Origin: a virus
Taxonomy: Duplodnaviria; Caudoviricetes
Direction: 5' to 3' (one strand)
DNA: 64,000 bases
Virus record (IMG/VR): IMGVR_UViG_3300012344_000013
Location: 1-64,000 of that record
The translations under genes were made by a program, and so were the position numbers. Below are positions 2,980 through 64,000 of this stretch, in pieces. The notes below the pieces were generated by a model that saw nothing but the letters and a program-made list of their open reading frames with translations, did not search any database and was not told the origin of the DNA. Each line of letters begins with the position of its first letter. Within the stretch, counting starts at the first letter, position 1.

Positions 2980-5900
2980 TTGGTAAGTTTTTTAGATAAT
3001 GAAGGCTTAAAATACTATGATGAGCGACTTAAAGCTTGGGTAGAAGCTAAAGTTGAGAAGTCAAGTAGCGCTTCAGATAAGAAAATAGAAGAATTAGATA
3101 ATAAAGTAAAAACAGAAGTAGCTCAAGATGTTAAATTGGATTTAACAGAAGATTATGTACTTACCGTTAAACTTTATAGTGAAGAAGGAACATTGATTTC
3201 AGATGATTCAGTAGATTTACCTATTGAATCACTTGTAAAGAATGGTTATTATGATGAAGATAAAAAAGAAATAGTTCTTGAATTACAAGATGGTACTAAA
3301 ATAGAAATCCCTGTAGGAGATTTAGTAGAAAATAAACTCGATAAAACATCTACTAAAAATGCTGTTTACGCTAACGATACTGATGGCAATCCAACAATGC
3401 TGAAGCAGTCAGCAACCAGTGCCGAAAGATATACACTTGTATTAAGAAATGCAGGCGGCGCTATTGTTACTGCATATGGTTCAGAAGATAATGAAGCCGT
3501 AACGGTAAGACAATTACAGGATAGCTCAGATATTTTACAGGATTTTATAAATAAAAAGTTAAACAAAGCCACAGAAAAGAATAAATTATATGGTACACAA
3601 GAAGATGGATACCAGTATTTATATAGTATAAATAAAAATGTAGATGCGCACTCCGTAGCGCAACGTACTGAGTTTGGTACTATTAAAGCATCTTATCCTC
3701 GTGAAAACGACGATGTAGCGACACAAGAATCCGTTTTAGCTGGATTAGATAAGAAATTAAATAGGGTCAATAAAGAATCAGATTATTTATCTGTTTATGC
3801 GGTTACTGACAATGGTAAAGACGCTTTCTTAAAACAAAAATCGGATAAGGCTCAAGCATGGAGTATTCCTTTAAGATTTAGACAGGGACAGATTTTAGCA
3901 GCTCGTTCTGATATAGAAACAGACCCTGAAAAACTTAAAGATTCAGAAGGCAATCCTATAGATACTGACAATTTTTTAGTTACACAAGGACAGTTAAAAG
4001 AAGTAAATACTAAAGTAGATAATAGACTATTAAAAACAAAAAGTACTTACATACTTTATGGAACAACTGGTAAAGATGCAGAAGGAAATACAATTCAATC
4101 AGAATTACCTTTTAGGTCAACCGCAGCTGGTAATTCTATTACACAAAGAACTGCTGAAGGCAGAATAAAAGCAGTTGCTGGTGCAGACTTAAACGATGTA
4201 GTAGTTGTATCACAGCTTAAAGATATTGAAGATGATTTAGACTTAATATCTACTGATATCAATGACGCTACAAATATCTACTATCCTAATAAAGAAGATA
4301 AAGAAGCATTTAATATTGCCAGAAATAATATTAGTGGCTCTAACTCCATTGTAGGAAGTAAAGGATTTAAGATTACACAAGATAATTTCCATAATGCTTG
4401 TCTGGGTTTATTTGTAATTAAACCTGCTGTTCAAGATACCCTTTCAGATATATCTTTAGTTAAAACTATGGTATGTGAGAGATATGGTAGTAGCCAAACT
4501 CTTACTGTAATAGATAGTAATGCATATGTAGATGGTGCTAACGAGTATGTAACATTTTTAACGCAGGAGCCTCCTTATTTATATTCTGAAGATGCTTATA
4601 GTTTTTCACAGATTACATTTAAGAATGAAGCTGGAGATACAATTGGTACATTACAGCCTCCTAAAGACCAAGCAGCAGACCTTATCCAATGGTATGGCTG
4701 TGTATATCAAGAGGGGCAGCTTGAGCCATCTACTAGCTTAAGCGCCTATGTGGAATTACAAGGCAATTATTATATGCCTAAAGCAGATAATATAGGTGCT
4801 TTCTATTATGTAGATATTCCTAATGATGTTATTACACAAAATCTTGTAAACGAACCTACTTGTATAAAAATAGATGCCAACTTTGATTCAGGTACTCGTC
4901 AATCTTATAAAGATTGGGGAGATGACGGAACACTTACTACAGTAATAGCGGAGCAATGTCTTAAAGCAAATTACACTGTAGGTAACAGTTATTTAACTCT
5001 TTTCTTGAAGAAAAATAAAAGAGAAGGTCAAGGTTTAGAACAAGCTCCTATATTCAAAACAAGCTCTTGTATTAGATTTACCGACTATCCTGAGATAGGT
5101 AATGCTACTGTAGGCTTAGGATTTAATAATATCTTTGGCGATACTGATAGAGGATTATTTGATTTTGGATTTGCTAGTGGTTACGGCAATACTTCAATTG
5201 GACGTTATAGTATAACTGGTGGTACTAGAAATAGTGCAGTTTATGCTGGCGTTGCTCTTGGTAATCACAATATTGTTCTTGGACAAAGTGGCTTTGCTGC
5301 TGGTGCAACGAACTTTATTAGCCGAAGTGGTAGCAATGGCATTGCACTTGGCTCTGAGAACGTGTTAAACGGTAAGAACAATGTTGCTGGCGGTAGAGCG
5401 AATAACGTGGGTGGTTTGTATAGTGTTGCACTTGGTTACGGTAACAAAGTAAAGGGCAACAACGGTATAGCACTTGGTTATAATAACAATCAAAGCGATG
5501 ACCTTGAGTTTGCTGTCGGTCTTGGAAACACTTTAACTGGTGAAGGCTCAATAACATTGGGCAGAGCGAACCAAGCATGTGGAAATTACAATGTTTGCAT
5601 AGGGCGAGGTAATATAGCAAACTTATCTACATTTAATATAGTTATAGGCCAAAACAATAATAGTTATGGAAATCATTCACTTACAGTAGGCGTAGATAAT
5701 AAGAATTATATGCGTGCTTCTATTGTTGCCGGATTTGGAAATAGAATTAACAATGACAACCCTCTATCTTCTGATGGTGCAGGTCATTTAGTAGGCGGTA
5801 ATAATAATACTTTAGATACTGGACGTAATAATATCTTGAGCGGCCAAACTTGCCATATTAAATTAAGGGATTCTCTTGTAGTAGGTAATAACCTACAGGA

Positions 5901-7302
5901 TTTATCTGGCGGTTATGGTAAAGCTATATTCGGTAACTATAATGACGACACGTCTTATGCAAGTTTAGTACTCGGTAATGGCACAAAAGACCCTGTAACA
6001 AATGTAGTTACTAGAAGAAATGCTTTTGAAGTACATTCAGACGGTCGAGTAATCACACCGACATCACCTGCATATTTAGATTCGCATACAAAGAGACTTA
6101 CAACAAAAGAATATGTTGATAATAAGATAGCTACTGAACTTGCTGCTGCTAAAGCGGCTTATGAAGAAGTATTCACAATAGATTTATATAAACAGGAAAA
6201 TGGTTATTATTCTGAATCGAAAGTCGACGACATTAAAGCGGCTTATGAAGAAGGAAAAGTACTTAAAGTACATGAAATAGATGAAACTGACGAAGTTCTT
6301 CCGCTTATGTACATTACAGTAGAGGATGATAAAATATCGGCTAGATTTGGATATTCTTATGTAGCGGCAGGTGGCGAAAGTGTAATTACCGTTTCGTTAG
6401 ATTATAGTAGTGAAGATGAAGGCTGGCATAAAGAGATTAGTGAAGGAGATTATTTTAGGTTAAATAAGAATCCTTCTGATAATTCTCTAGTAGCTGCTGG
6501 AAATCTTAATATGGGCAGTTACGGTATTTCAAATATCGGAGAGTTGCATGTTAATGGAGAGGCTTCTATATTTGTTGGCTCTACAGTTAAATCGGAAGCA
6601 GGTACTACTAATAAGCCTAGATTAACAGGTGTAGTCAATGAAGTTGCCGCAGCATTTGTACAATCTGATACTCAAAACACCTACATTCCTCTGTATATAG
6701 GTAATCCTACTAAACCTAAACATGCCGTTAATAAAGAGCATTTAGATGCTATTATAAGTGAATTTATAGCAGAAGAAGATAACGGCAAAACCTTAAAACT
6801 TGTATCTGATACAGCAAGTGATACCGTATTAAAACTTGATTGTGAAGGCGTTAGATGTACTAATACTACTACCCAAGAAGATACAGTAAGCTTTAAGTGG
6901 AATGGAGTTTCTCCTTACACTATAGGAATTACAGAAACCTATGATAGCAGTACTGAAACTTCAACTTATACAACAAATTCCCCGTTTAGTTTTGATGCTA
7001 TTAAAGAAGCTTTTAATAATGCGAGACCTCTTCAGGTATTTTTAACTCAAACAGATACTAATAATAAAAGCTTATTACCCTTAATGAGTGCTGATTTCAA
7101 TGGTAATAATGCTATATTAGTGTTTGGACATTCTTATGTACAGCATGACGGATTAGTAGTTCACTCATCTGCAATAGAATATATTCACAATGAAGGTCAA
7201 GCTGACCAGTGGTTGGATATAAGTGCTTCGTCAGAGAGTCTTACTAAATCAGCTTTTAATTTTGATGAATCAACAGGGACTCTTACAATTGATTTAGATT
7301 AA
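2980..7302 (+). CDS. Large tail fibre/adhesin with YadA-head-like (Hep/Hag) beta-roll repeats
   Basis: TTG start with SD AAGGAGG. N-terminal ~65-aa repeats (KL.K...YA/G...A...R...G.I....D.....Q). ~14-aa G/N repeats (GIALGSENVLNGKN, SVALGYGNKVKGNN) followed by 'LVLGNG...RRNAFEVHSDG'. Confidence 0.75.
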   Translation: MVSFLDNEGLKYYDERLKAWVEAKVEKSSSASDKKIEELDNKVKTEVAQDVKLDLTEDYVLTVKLYSEEGTLISDDSVDLPIESLVKNGYYDEDKKEIVLELQDGTKIEIPVGDLVENKLDKTSTKNAVYANDTDGNPTMLKQSATSAERYTLVLRNAGGAIVTAYGSEDNEAVTVRQLQDSSDILQDFINKKLNKATEKNKLYGTQEDGYQYLYSINKNVDAHSVAQRTEFGTIKASYPRENDDVATQESVLAGLDKKLNRVNKESDYLSVYAVTDNGKDAFLKQKSDKAQAWSIPLRFRQGQILAARSDIETDPEKLKDSEGNPIDTDNFLVTQGQLKEVNTKVDNRLLKTKSTYILYGTTGKDAEGNTIQSELPFRSTAAGNSITQRTAEGRIKAVAGADLNDVVVVSQLKDIEDDLDLISTDINDATNIYYPNKEDKEAFNIARNNISGSNSIVGSKGFKITQDNFHNACLGLFVIKPAVQDTLSDISLVKTMVCERYGSSQTLTVIDSNAYVDGANEYVTFLTQEPPYLYSEDAYSFSQITFKNEAGDTIGTLQPPKDQAADLIQWYGCVYQEGQLEPSTSLSAYVELQGNYYMPKADNIGAFYYVDIPNDVITQNLVNEPTCIKIDANFDSGTRQSYKDWGDDGTLTTVIAEQCLKANYTVGNSYLTLFLKKNKREGQGLEQAPIFKTSSCIRFTDYPEIGNATVGLGFNNIFGDTDRGLFDFGFASGYGNTSIGRYSITGGTRNSAVYAGVALGNHNIVLGQSGFAAGATNFISRSGSNGIALGSENVLNGKNNVAGGRANNVGGLYSVALGYGNKVKGNNGIALGYNNNQSDDLEFAVGLGNTLTGEGSITLGRANQACGNYNVCIGRGNIANLSTFNIVIGQNNNSYGNHSLTVGVDNKNYMRASIVAGFGNRINNDNPLSSDGAGHLVGGNNNTLDTGRNNILSGQTCHIKLRDSLVVGNNLQDLSGGYGKAIFGNYNDDTSYASLVLGNGTKDPVTNVVTRRNAFEVHSDGRVITPTSPAYLDSHTKRLTTKEYVDNKIATELAAAKAAYEEVFTIDLYKQENGYYSESKVDDIKAAYEEGKVLKVHEIDETDEVLPLMYITVEDDKISARFGYSYVAAGGESVITVSLDYSSEDEGWHKEISEGDYFRLNKNPSDNSLVAAGNLNMGSYGISNIGELHVNGEASIFVGSTVKSEAGTTNKPRLTGVVNEVAAAFVQSDTQNTYIPLYIGNPTKPKHAVNKEHLDAIISEFIAEEDNGKTLKLVSDTASDTVLKLDCEGVRCTNTTTQEDTVSFKWNGVSPYTIGITETYDSSTETSTYTTNSPFSFDAIKEAFNNARPLQVFLTQTDTNNKSLLPLMSADFNGNNAILVFGHSYVQHDGLVVHSSAIEYIHNEGQADQWLDISASSESLTKSAFNFDESTGTLTIDLD
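6150..6253 (+). repeat. 20-bp perfect direct repeat TAAAGCGGCTTATGAAGAAG (6150-6169, 6234-6253)
   Basis: Read directly; both copies encode KAAYEE. Confidence 0.85.
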
Positions 7303-60875: not shown

Positions 60876-61715
60876 ATGGAAAATAATCAATTTGTTCCAG
60901 ATAATTTGGGATTCTTTAATTTGTTTGCAGATGGTGATACTGCAACTATTAGACTTTTGCATAGGTCCGTAAGTACAATTGAGCATTCTATGGTGCATAA
61001 TGTGCGGGTAAATGGTAAGAAAAACGTAGTTAAATGTATAGGTGATAGCTGTCCTATATGTGCTATTAATCAGCCTTTTGAAAGAGTTTATATTAAGCTA
61101 TTTGATTACGCTGATAATAAAATAAAGGTATGGGTAAGAACTGATAGAATATTATCTCAATTTCAAGAAATTGAAAATAATTGGGGAGATTTATCTCAGC
61201 AGGTATTAAAAATTACTAGAATAGGTAATGACTTCCCTAAATATGATGTACAGATGCTTAATCCTGCTAATTTTGCAAATCCAAATCTTGAAGTTGATAA
61301 ATCTGTTGCATATAGATTTTATAAAATACGCAGTGCTGAAGAATTGAATGAGTTTTTGAGAACAGGAATTATGCCAGCACATAAGAAGCAGGAAGCCCAG
61401 AGTACACAGGCACCTACTCCTAAAGTTTCAAATAATTTTGCTAACCCTGTTCAGACTAATAGTTTTGCACAAAATTCTAATACTCAAGCATTTCAATTCA
61501 GTCAGCCTATAAATAATACACAGCAGTCACAAGAAGTGCCCTGGGCTCAGAGTTTTGCACAAGCAAGCACACCTACTCAACAACAAAGTGTCCCGCAGTT
61601 TAATAGTGTATTTGGGAATTCAGCAAATACGGTACAACCCACAAATAATACACAAGATGTTTTTCAGCAAGCACAGAATCGATTTTTTCCATTTGACCAA
61701 ATAAGAAAGGTATAA
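60876..61715 (+). CDS. ssb: gp32-like single-stranded DNA-binding protein with a Q/N-rich tail
   Basis: 'FFNL..DGD.A.IR.L', H...C....CPIC zinc site, 'KITR.G....KY'. Confidence 0.7.
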   Translation: MENNQFVPDNLGFFNLFADGDTATIRLLHRSVSTIEHSMVHNVRVNGKKNVVKCIGDSCPICAINQPFERVYIKLFDYADNKIKVWVRTDRILSQFQEIENNWGDLSQQVLKITRIGNDFPKYDVQMLNPANFANPNLEVDKSVAYRFYKIRSAEELNEFLRTGIMPAHKKQEAQSTQAPTPKVSNNFANPVQTNSFAQNSNTQAFQFSQPINNTQQSQEVPWAQSFAQASTPTQQQSVPQFNSVFGNSANTVQPTNNTQDVFQQAQNRFFPFDQIRKV

Positions 61716-61718
61716 TAG

Positions 61719-63263
61719 ATGAATTCCTATAAGAAAGCTTCTTTTTTAGACGATTTTGAATTGCCAGAGATAACACATGATACTATAAAAAGTGAGCTAG
61801 TAAAGTTAGGAAGAGTACATTCAGTTCAGAAAAGGAAGACAATAGAAGGTCTTCCTTTAACTGAACGTCTTGAATATATTTCTAATGAAGTATATAAAGT
61901 TTTAGGTAGATATAAAAATTTCGTTAAGATAATTGATAATTATGCAGATTTAGATAAATATATTGATTTAGCAATTGATAAGGTTTATTTAGCATTTGAT
62001 ACAGAAACTAATAATAGTCTTGACCCTTTAACATGTAAATTGATGGGTCTATGCTTATATATTCCAAATACTAAACCTGTATATGTTCCAATAAATCATT
62101 GTAAACCAGGTACTGATGAATTATTAAGTAATCAAGTGTCTATGGAAGAAGTTACTAAAATATTCAAAAAATTAAAGAATAGTAATGTTAAAATGGTATA
62201 CCATAATGGTAAGTTTGACATTAGGGTTTGCTATAATACAACTGGTGTGTATTTACCTATATATTGGGACACTATGATAGCTGCTCAGTTATTAAACGAG
62301 AATGAATTAGCTAGACTTAAATATCAATATAAAACTCATGTAAATCCAACATTAAATCAATATAACATAGAAAAATTATTTACAGGTTTGCCTTATGCTT
62401 GGATTCCAGTAGATATATTTGCATTATATGCGGCAATAGATGCTTTTGATACTTATAATCTTATGTTAGAGCAGAAGAATGCTTTTGAAAAAGAAGAATT
62501 AGATAAACTTTATAATGTATTCATGAATATTGAGATGCCTATAGTAAGTATAACTGCAAAGATGGAAGATACAGGGGTATGTATTGATTTAGATTATCTT
62601 AATAGATTATCTAATAAGTATACTGTAGGATTAGAAAATGCTACTAAGCAATTAAACGAAATATTAGAACCGTATTCAAAACAGATATCTTATTATCAAA
62701 GTTTGGGTAAATTAGATAAACCAGTTAATTTTGAATCATCACAACAATTACAGATATTGATGTATGATATATTAAAATTAGAGCCCATAGAAGATAAAGG
62801 CCGTTCTACAGCAAAAGCAGAATTGAAAGCTTTTGATATACCATTTACAAATGCCCTATTAGATTATAGACATTGTAGTGTACTTATGAAAACATTTATA
62901 AAACCAACTCCCGAGCGAATTAGTACTAGAGATGGTAAATTACATACTAACTTTAATCAGATGGGTGCAGAAGAAAATAATGTCCGTTCTGGTAGATTTT
63001 CAAGCACTAATCCAAATTTACAGAATATTCCAAGTAAATCTCAAGAAGTACGTCTGATGTTTGAAGCTAGCGAGGAAATAGTTGATTGTAGTTTCAATAA
63101 TAATTGTATAGAATTAAGTACATTTGACGATGTTGAGACTGATATGGGTTGGAAAAACATAAAAGAATTGAATATAGGAGATATTATATTAAGTAACAAT
63201 TGTCAACTAGTTATAGAAAATATAAGTATAGTTGATAATATAGCTAAGATATTTGTAAAATAA
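61719..63263 (+). CDS. polA: Family-A DNA polymerase, N-terminal part (3'-5' exonuclease + thumb) with a Hint/intein-N-like C-terminal segment
   Basis: Exo motifs 'FDTET', 'HNGKFD', 'DTMIAA', 'YAAID'; 'SGRFSSTNPNLQNIP'. Confidence 0.9.
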   Translation: MNSYKKASFLDDFELPEITHDTIKSELVKLGRVHSVQKRKTIEGLPLTERLEYISNEVYKVLGRYKNFVKIIDNYADLDKYIDLAIDKVYLAFDTETNNSLDPLTCKLMGLCLYIPNTKPVYVPINHCKPGTDELLSNQVSMEEVTKIFKKLKNSNVKMVYHNGKFDIRVCYNTTGVYLPIYWDTMIAAQLLNENELARLKYQYKTHVNPTLNQYNIEKLFTGLPYAWIPVDIFALYAAIDAFDTYNLMLEQKNAFEKEELDKLYNVFMNIEMPIVSITAKMEDTGVCIDLDYLNRLSNKYTVGLENATKQLNEILEPYSKQISYYQSLGKLDKPVNFESSQQLQILMYDILKLEPIEDKGRSTAKAELKAFDIPFTNALLDYRHCSVLMKTFIKPTPERISTRDGKLHTNFNQMGAEENNVRSGRFSSTNPNLQNIPSKSQEVRLMFEASEEIVDCSFNNNCIELSTFDDVETDMGWKNIKELNIGDIILSNNCQLVIENISIVDNIAKIFVK

Positions 63264-63282
63264 TTATAGGTGGTGGGTATTA

Positions 63283-64000
63283 TTGAAATCGATAAAAGTA
63301 AAAAAGCATTATATTATAGTTGGTGGAGATTTTAGTGCTCAAGAGCCTAGAATTTTAACAAGTATAACTAATGACCCTACATTTCTTGAGGTATTTAGAA
63401 CCGGTAAAGACCCTTATGCTACTATTAGTTCTCTTGTATTTAAGAAATCGTATTGGGAATGTATGGAACATCATGAAGACGGTACTCCTAATCCTGATGG
63501 AGCATTATTACGGAAAAGGGCAAAAACTATTCTACTTGGAATTACCTATGGAATGGGACCAAAACTTATGGCTAGTAATTTACATGTAGATATAGATGAA
63601 TGCGTTGAAATATTAAATGAGTTTTTTAAGACTTTTCCAAATATAAAATCATTCACGGAATATAATATAAATTCTGCTAAAGAATTAGGTTATGTAGAAG
63701 ATTACATGGGGCGGCGGCGTCATTTACCTGATGCTCAATTAGATGAGATTAAAGTACAAGCTAATAAGGAAATTTATACTGATTGTGATTTATTTTTAGA
63801 TTGTACTACTTCTGATTGTAAGATAAATATAAAAGATAGTGAAGCTACTAATAAATGGACAAATATTTATTTAGAGCAATATGCTCATAAGGGTTTCAAA
63901 GCTAAGACACAATTCAAAGAATTAGCTAAAAAAAATGATATAGTAGTTAGAGATAACGGCGCATTTATATCAAAAACTATGACACAATGTACTAACGCAC
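63283..64000 (+). CDS. polA: Family-A DNA polymerase, C-terminal part (palm/fingers), 3'-truncated; missing from the ORF track
   Basis: TTG at 63283 after AGGTGG; (M)KSIKVKKHYIIVGGDFSAQEPR (motif A), RKRAKTILLGITYG (motif B), GYVEDYMGRRRHLP; open to the window end. Confidence 0.9.
   Translation, partial: MKSIKVKKHYIIVGGDFSAQEPRILTSITNDPTFLEVFRTGKDPYATISSLVFKKSYWECMEHHEDGTPNPDGALLRKRAKTILLGITYGMGPKLMASNLHVDIDECVEILNEFFKTFPNIKSFTEYNINSAKELGYVEDYMGRRRHLPDAQLDEIKVQANKEIYTDCDLFLDCTTSDCKINIKDSEATNKWTNIYLEQYAHKGFKAKTQFKELAKKNDIVVRDNGAFISKTMTQCTNA

Follow-up and report, generated by a model that had tools for sequence, protein, structure and literature searches.

A phage family-A DNA polymerase split before motif A, with extensions that resemble a truncated Hint domain and may join its two chains

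Two routes are known by which an essential gene cut by an endonuclease survives: a split intein re-ligates the protein, or short tails join the pieces as a complex. Split inteins have been engineered whose C-terminal fragment is only 6-15 residues long, a short strand that completes the Hint sheet of the longer N-fragment; these artificial proteins still have the catalytic Asn and the +1 nucleophile, and they do splice. In the MobA element of phage T4, the topoisomerase gene is split by an endonuclease, conserved C- and N-terminal extensions and a bypass insert are added, and the element then decays until only the split and the tails are left or the gene is re-fused (bioRxiv 10.1101/2022.08.31.505936). 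Here we describe a pair of neighbouring genes that encode a family-A DNA polymerase (PolA) and are broken just before motif A. The pair lies at the end of the first 64 kb (64,000 nucleotides, hereafter the window) of the viral record IMGVR_UViG_3300012344_000013, which is 126.6 kb long in full and has direct terminal repeats. With a probability of roughly 0.7, the two genes encode a two-chain polymerase that assembles non-covalently and carries dead, truncated Hint extensions as a clasp beside motif A.

Polymerase genes split before motif A

The first gene encodes the 3'-5' exonuclease and the thumb, then the palm as far as the NLQNIP motif, and lastly a C-terminal extension; the second gene encodes motif A, the fingers with motif B, and motif C (Table 1). 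The second gene runs 410 nt past the end of the window (L002 coordinates 5284-6411; L numbers designate loci). Pfam detects DNA_pol_A_exo1 at 1.4e-14 and DNA_pol_A at 6e-23 in the N-half and at 9e-28 in the C-half. The exonuclease domain is accompanied by the Asp of motif A, motif B and the HDE of motif C, all visible in the C-half, as is characteristic of a family-A polymerase. Positions 5-157 of the DNA_pol_A profile are matched by the first protein, and positions 148-292 onward by the second. These ranges are complementary and divide between both proteins, indicating that it is the polymerase domain that is interrupted.

The interruption separates the NLQNIP motif from motif A (DFSAQEPR); the two are only a few residues apart in intact PolA, as the initial annotation of this DNA had stated. 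This agrees with the Pfam ranges and with uninserted relatives, in which a loop of 4-5 residues leads from F-x-A to the motif A strand. In the window, approximately 64 extra residues precede the stop codon and nine follow the new start, and these residues on either side of the break are not found in unsplit homologues. The second gene is in the +1 frame relative to the first. The stop codon, the change of frame, the Shine-Dalgarno-like run and the short basic strand of the second product are all present as originally described. The basic strand is kept as x-[ST]-[IL]-K-T-R-T-R directly before the motif A strand in 23 aligned C-halves, and G14, D16, S18, Q20, E21 and P22 are invariant in the alignment of motif A (A4).

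The junction is identical in L025, an independent assembly with approximately 8% substitutions (approximately 92% nucleotide identity): the stop, the spacer and the TTG start are the same, and no indels are found across the junction. The ratio of nonsynonymous to synonymous substitution rates (dN/dS) against L025 is 0.061 in each polymerase body and 0.157 in the tail, indicating that the tail is a coding sequence under purifying selection that is looser than that on the enzyme core.

Relatives were collected with a profile built from the last ~120 residues of eleven N-halves and searched in 1.84 billion cluster representatives, from which the best 150 were taken. Most of these 150 end right after a homologous tail. 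Eighty-five of them are near-full N-halves: 51 of these are split, 26 are without the domain, and the remaining eight are full-length polymerases that contain it in frame. More than 50 polymerase cluster representatives, with less than 50% mutual identity, share this end point. With the C-half as query, 457 relatives are obtained at E<=1e-10, dozens of which begin with a basic strand directly before motif A. All split forms seen carry both extensions. The split is real and under selection. At the DNA level, megablast against deposited phages finds no close relative, and tblastn finds distant polymerases only, mostly without a tail. A first word-index search with the tail region found one relative, and a search of the same phage genome for further copies of the module found none.

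The extensions of one close relative have been replaced as a whole. The polymerase body of L031 is 93.6% identical to that of the window, while its tail is only 32% identical. When L031:3960-4135 is compared with window 63075-63310, the nucleotide identity is 43-60% over the tail, the spacer and the basic strand and 83-95% in the flanks, and it returns to 95% at the motif A strand, so that the mosaic boundaries are the edges of the insertion. Because the drop in identity matches the insertion exactly, the tail, the spacer and the basic strand have been exchanged as one unit.

Hint-like extensions and proposed assembly of the two chains

A profile built from eleven tails was searched against 177,635 PDB sequences. 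The top three matches are all Hint or intein chains (E 5.5e-5 to 1.3e-3), and include the bacterial intein-like chain 2lwy_A (E 5.5e-5) and the gp41-1 intein (E 1.2e-3). In the HMMER alignment with gp41-1, tail positions 20-64 correspond to intein residues 8-54. The same profile also finds an unrelated Hint-type protein, P0279, in a database of 5.8 billion sequences (E 4e-4). The AlphaFold2 model of the tail has six beta strands, with a predicted local distance difference test score (pLDDT) of 85.4 overall and of 86-96 from residue 10 on; residues 1-9, with pLDDT below 50, form a disordered leader in this tail-only model. When the model is compared with PDB by Foldseek, ranks 1-4 are inteins (E 0.06-0.18). 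When it is compared with 48,161 chains in a VIA search, inteins occupy ranks 1-6 with Z values of 5.3-6.0 and root mean square deviations (rmsd) of 1.6-2.2 A over 48-52 residues, the best being gp41-1 (6riz_A; Z 6.0, rmsd 1.6 A over 52 residues, 27% identity).

The fused form that occurs naturally in L013 was also modelled by AlphaFold (pLDDT 87). Its leader strand (E4-9) and its last strand (E71-76), which is equivalent to the basic strand, are both confident. The top 16 matches of this model in the VIA search are all Hint-fold domains (inteins, bacterial intein-like domains and Vint), with 1gpp_A as the best (Z 6.3, rmsd 1.9 A over 63 residues), and the matched region of the inteins extends from residue 1 almost to the C-terminus. 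Language-model (feature) and shape searches of the ESM Atlas return Hint clusters as well. The domain comprises approximately 75 of the ~130 residues of a Hint domain, about half the fold. Each of these lines is modest, but they are independent and all point to Hint, so that a Hint ancestry of the tail is quite likely. The intein-like pattern that had been read in the extra segment is thereby recovered both by the tail profile and by the predicted fold.

The C-half has both catalytic Asp motifs and the fingers, and the N-half has the rest; therefore, the halves must associate to form the DNA cleft. As had been proposed from the single sequence, the N-terminal part of the module is acidic and its C-terminal strand basic: of 85 tails, 84 carry a net negative charge, and the basic strands have a mean charge of +3.4. 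Association was examined by complex prediction with tail residues 449-514 alone against the whole C-half, which excludes the polymerase interface as the cause of a pass. The score is 0.56, a weak pass, and that of the best of three controls is 0.00; the runs share at least 93% of contacts, and the pLDDT of the partner is at least 82. The pass mark is reached by 58 of 80 solved complexes and by 2 of 110 mismatched pairs, and seven of the 80 solved complexes, together with both passing mismatches, pass with scores of 0.60 or less. These counts are rough for the present case, because own alignments were used here, and likeness to solved split-intein complexes may raise the score.

We propose that a homing-endonuclease cassette fractures the polymerase gene, and that it brings an acidic tail of 65 residues and a basic strand of nine, or that these derive from a former fractured intein. 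The two extensions together would form a truncated Hint beta domain of approximately 75 residues that has lost its splicing residues, so that the chains are not ligated. The second chain would be made separately from its own ribosome site and TTG start, and the chains would assemble non-covalently through the normal polymerase interfaces into an active enzyme. The basic strand most likely inserts in the tail sheet beside the acidic leader, forming a clasp next to motif A; such strand complementation is weakly supported by the complex prediction, and pairing of the leader with the basic strand is what the fused model would suggest. The window would represent a stage in which the endonuclease gene is lost and the split and the two tails remain. 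A more specific proposal is put forward only tentatively: the tail and the basic strand would be a dead, half-sized split intein serving as an obligatory non-covalent clasp, bridging split inteins and plain extension tails, and the cassette in many relatives may include the first natural family of 4-13 nt stop-hop sites that protect an endonuclease target in motif A.

Several points weigh against assembly through a Hint-derived clasp. Foldseek, a check that had been suggested for the segment, ranks inteins first, but it gives no match of the tail model to PDB at E<=1e-3. The structural Z values of 5.3-6.3 are middling, and small beta domains often reach values of about 6. When single tails are searched against Pfam, PT-HINT and Hint_2 appear below threshold only (E 0.07-0.14). 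The end of the tail is assigned to different intein strands by HMMER (residues 8-54) and by structure (up to approximately 111-120), and either assignment is possible because the Hint fold has an internal two-fold symmetry. The complex prediction is only a weak pass, and binding of the chains and activity of the enzyme are presumed. The window contains no endonuclease gene, so that the cassette history is taken from relatives. Finally, the domain persists in unsplit polymerases, indicating that it is not kept only as a clasp.

This last point is also compatible with another explanation, in which the tails are a neutral scar of an endonuclease visit: the ordinary interfaces alone would join the halves, and the tails would be baggage or have another role, such as binding of a partner or DNA. 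The sporadic, cassette-like distribution of the domain agrees with it, as does a tail that evolves 2.5 times faster than the body, and the halves of Aeh1 NrdA still bound each other after deletion of the tails (bioRxiv 10.1101/2022.08.31.505936). However, mere baggage does not readily account for the exchange of the tail together with the basic strand, for their near-universal opposite charge, for purifying selection on the tail, or for the retention of both extensions in every split form seen. In addition, the fused model includes the basic strand in the domain with confidence, and docking of the tail on the C-half is predicted, with weak support and with controls at 0.00. A neutral scar is therefore considered rather unlikely.

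Table 1. Positions of the split polymerase genes and their junction in the window, and of the short motif A inserts in related loci
Feature	Position	Strand	Basis or remark
N-half gene, 514 aa	61719..63263	+	Open reading frame (ORF) list; Pfam DNA_pol_A_exo1 and DNA_pol_A; dN/dS 0.06 against L025
C-terminal extension of the N-half, residues 449-514 (63-66 aa)	63063..63260	+	Short acidic leader, then an all-beta, putative mini-Hint domain without catalytic residues
TAA stop of the N-half	63261..63263	+	Sequence; same in L025
19-nt spacer with purine-rich Shine-Dalgarno-like run at 63268-63277	63264..63282	+	Sequence
C-half gene, 375 aa	63283..64000, on to base 64410 of the record	+	ORF; Pfam DNA_pol_A
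TTG start and 9-aa basic N-terminal extension of the C-half (proposed complementing strand)	63283..63309	+	Conserved in C-halves
Motif A strand and helix with catalytic Asp (DFSAQEPR), uninterrupted	63310..63351	+	Sequence, alignment
Motif A inserts, first group of loci	L003:5679-5720; L004:4801-4835; L006:5554-5590; L007:5689-5725; L008:5518-5550
Motif A inserts, second group of loci	L012:5596-5630; L017:5891-5925; L021:2470-2520; L023:2490-2530
Motif A inserts, third group of loci	L026:~405-440; L027:~395-430; L028:~395-440; L029:~395-430

Directly upstream of the polymerase, window 60876-61715 encodes a product of 279 aa with a long, low-complexity C-terminal half rich in Gln, Asn, Pro and Thr. 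Similar Q/N-rich proteins are encoded at the same position in relatives, between a Toprim-domain gene and the polymerase. Rfam, used at permissive thresholds on 62500-64000, returns chance snoRNA-type rows only. A group I or other intron at the junction was considered and rejected, because Rfam gives no real match and the 19-nt spacer is too small.

Probable separate translation and missing splicing residues

Nine related loci were compared for spacer, frame, start and Shine-Dalgarno-like site. In each of them, a site of the GGAGG/GGTGG type lies just upstream of the likely start of the C-half, which is ATG in six loci, TTG in two and apparently ATT in one. The spacers in relatives are -1, 0, 14, 20, 79, 110 and 1002 nt long, the last where an endonuclease gene intervenes, and frame offsets of 0, 1 and 2 all occur. 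The ribosome site and start of the second gene, recognized in the window at the outset, are thus kept in relatives.

The initial annotation had offered as its alternative a programmed +1 frameshift at the end of the first gene (GTA-AAA-TAA), which would yield a single chain that retains the insertion as an internal domain. From 63259 on, the +1 frame is indeed open, and in the natural fused forms an insertion within the chain is evidently tolerated. However, the +1 frame is open just eight codons ahead of the TTG start, and it is the Shine-Dalgarno-like site and the start that are conserved, not the frame offset or the spacer length (-1 to 1002 nt). The junctions have no slippery motif in common. 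The junction is identical in L025 and wholly different in L031, which nevertheless retains the stop, the spacer and the start. These results make a programmed frameshift very improbable.

A working non-canonical split intein, whose halves trans-splice or cleave to give a single-chain polymerase, would account for the Hint-like fold and for the Cys that is present in the window where the structural alignment puts intein residue 1 or -1. It would also be consistent with the lineage of L017 and L018, the only one in which the basic strand ends in H-N-C and one that has genuine mini-inteins in the same gene. The residue at the equivalent of position 1, however, is variable: among the 85 tails, it is Ser in 13, Tyr in 12, Lys in 10, Cys in nine, Thr, Ile and Val in seven each, and Glu in five, so that Cys, Ser and Thr together make up 29 of 85, and the nucleophile required of an intein at this position is not a property of the family. 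It varies even between phages with 94%-identical polymerase bodies. No His is found in the tail of the window and no TxxH column (block B) in alignments A1, A3 and A6, nor is there a terminal Asn, Gln or Asp. His-Asn is not found before motif A in the window: its basic strand ends in K-K-H and is followed by Tyr, and the family consensus is T-R-T-R followed by Y, so that most relatives share with the window a Tyr as the +1 residue. The domain has only ~75 residues, half of the ~130 of a Hint domain. It also stays unremoved and in frame in the fused polymerases, which hold it as a permanent insertion and lack the splicing residues like the rest of the family. A working split intein is therefore scarcely credible.

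The absence of TxxH and of a C-terminal His-Asn before motif A, noted originally for the window alone, thus extends to the family alignments, and so does the non-splicing character proposed from it, since the catalytic residues are absent across the family. As far as sequence can tell, the domain appears to be without any residue needed for splicing, and protein splicing is not expected. The module is best not counted among the inteins.

Genuine mini-inteins are found in the same polymerase of L017 and L018. At 5135-5554 in both loci, a mini-intein of 140 aa with Cys1, TPDH and a terminal HN followed by Cys occupies the GRFS motif, and it sits approximately 20 residues upstream of the dead Hint-like tail. 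When the tail profile is compared with the mini-intein of L017 by hhalign, only a 16-column match to the second half of the intein is obtained (probability 53%).

An assembly or sequencing indel, or a decaying pseudogene, accounts for a stop inside a conserved domain and for nothing further, and it is counted as already refuted, because the L025 junction is identical amid surrounding substitutions, dN/dS is 0.06-0.16, and more than 50 diverged clusters at below 50% identity share the architecture.

Cassette behaviour, motif A inserts and comparison with known systems

The gap between the halves, which in the window is a 19-nt spacer without an endonuclease gene, contains such genes in some relatives. 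In L004 and L005, it contains an ORF of 310 aa with an HNH-type motif and a weak match to NUMOD3, and in L028 it contains a GIY-YIG gene. A FastTree phylogeny of the 85 N-halves was calculated with the insertion columns left out and with Shimodaira-Hasegawa-like support; its sample was picked with a tail-containing profile. The three states (split, fused and without the domain) need at least 27 changes on this tree, no fewer than shuffled labels do, and several well-supported sister pairs differ in state. The domain is in frame in eight representatives and in L013. Taken together, the tree, the L031 exchange, the fused forms and the few endonuclease genes show that insertion at this one site has been sporadic, recent and repeated and has passed through stages of decay. 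The module thus appears to behave as part of a selfish homing-endonuclease cassette that moves between related phages. The family is a large group of phage PolA genes with a mobile, dead module, probably a mini-Hint domain, that is usually split in its last loop. The term domesticated, which had been applied to the module, is too strong for an element that is scattered over the tree, moves as one block between near-identical polymerases, is accompanied by endonuclease genes in the gaps of relatives and also occurs in frame in unsplit polymerases.

Other insertions are found in the polymerase genes of relatives. A second site lies between motifs A and B: in L018:5881-8753, it is split in the last loop and the gap contains an ORF of 535 aa with DUF7487 (weak Vsr match), and in L017:5881-7185 a beta-rich insertion of approximately 60 aa is in frame. 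The first-site tail and the second-site insertion of L017 are not significantly similar by hhalign (probability 0.7%), so that any kinship is by pattern only. Likely group I introns are found in the motif B region at L003:6081-6235 (weak Rfam match, E 0.014) and in a similar gap at L007 ~5915-6214. A further likely case is L020, which is without the tail and in which an insert of approximately 1 kb with a GIY-YIG gene (1525-2500) follows directly after the Ser codon of motif A; Rfam gives no match for this insert.

Thirteen distinct related loci contain a short insert of 4-13 nt within the coding DNA of motif A (Table 1); none is present in the window, L009 or L025. The insert opens with a stop codon in 12 of the 13 loci, and taking it out restores the exact motif A and the frame. 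In eight of 13 loci, the codon that precedes the insert is the same as, or synonymous with, the final codon of the insert; in the other five, these two codons agree in two of three bases. The take-off point is 17-21 codons past the new start, behind a basic nascent peptide. These features make the inserts candidates for a stop-hop, in which the peptidyl-tRNA would re-pair a few bases downstream. By analogy with the bypass of gene 60, the inserts probably protect the endonuclease target in motif A. A frameshift with two or three extra residues and a three-piece enzyme are possible alternatives. Reassignment of TAG to Gln was considered and rejected, because most inserts shift the frame and reading through them would add residues inside the motif. 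According to a 2016 review, natural short stop-hops are without a known example (PMC5009743); several candidates for such short translational hops are available in the relatives, all at a single conserved motif.

The module looks intermediate between the two survival routes, in that it has a reduced intein fold from which the chemistry is gone and association alone is left. If the clasp is functional, it would be a natural heterodimerisation pair of 65 and nine residues that leaves no splice scar, and it would show the decay of inteins into structural parts of their hosts. The family has more than 50 clusters at below 50% identity, and its natural alleles, which may be fused, split, endonuclease-bearing or empty, lend themselves to comparison.

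Among known systems, the ShiLan in-frame insertions in phage methylases (PMC11855218) are likewise mobile, retained in the host protein as a surface loop or domain, and sporadic like inteins. They differ in that they hide an out-of-frame HNH gene, are without a Hint fold and leave the host gene unsplit. The fractured genes with split inteins (gp41-1; Dassa et al. 2009, PMC2677866) are similar in that a phage replication gene is divided between two neighbouring genes and the break is bordered by Hint-fold halves, with an acidic N part and a basic C part. An endonuclease gene, Vsr-like ones included, lies between their halves, as it does here in relatives only. The gp41-1 intein is also the best match of the tail among inteins in both sequence and structure. 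However, the fractured genes keep blocks A, B, F and G and trans-splice, whereas the present domain is half-sized, lacks the catalytic residues and must stay in the protein.

The T4 MobA element with gene 39 and gene 60 resembles the present locus in that an essential replication enzyme is split at one site by a homing endonuclease (bioRxiv 10.1101/2022.08.31.505936; PMC5009743). In both, the first product has a C-terminal extension and the second an N-terminal one, and a bypassed insert lies early in the second gene, here in relatives. The decay series is also the same, with the window at the stage in which the endonuclease and the bypass are lost and the split and the tails are kept, and the slot is shared by HNH and GIY-YIG as well as Vsr-like endonuclease families. 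The differences are that the host gene here is PolA, that the extensions here have a recognisable fold and origin, a truncated Hint domain, and that the candidate bypass is 4-13 nt long in relatives and absent from the window, in contrast to 50 nt in gene 60. The nrdA-a/nrdA-b genes of Aeh1 (MobE) and the split T4-like gp43 family-B polymerases have likewise been split by a free-standing endonuclease and have tails, and their products form active non-covalent complexes (PMC2677866; bioRxiv 10.1101/2022.08.31.505936). Their tails are short and of no known fold, whereas the extensions described here are Hint-like and lie beside the catalytic Asp strand of a family-A polymerase. By this comparison, the closest known precedent is probably provided by the extension tails of T4 MobA and Aeh1 MobE, which here would be built from a truncated Hint domain. 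The new element is that the tails of an endonuclease-split gene would be a dead mini-intein.

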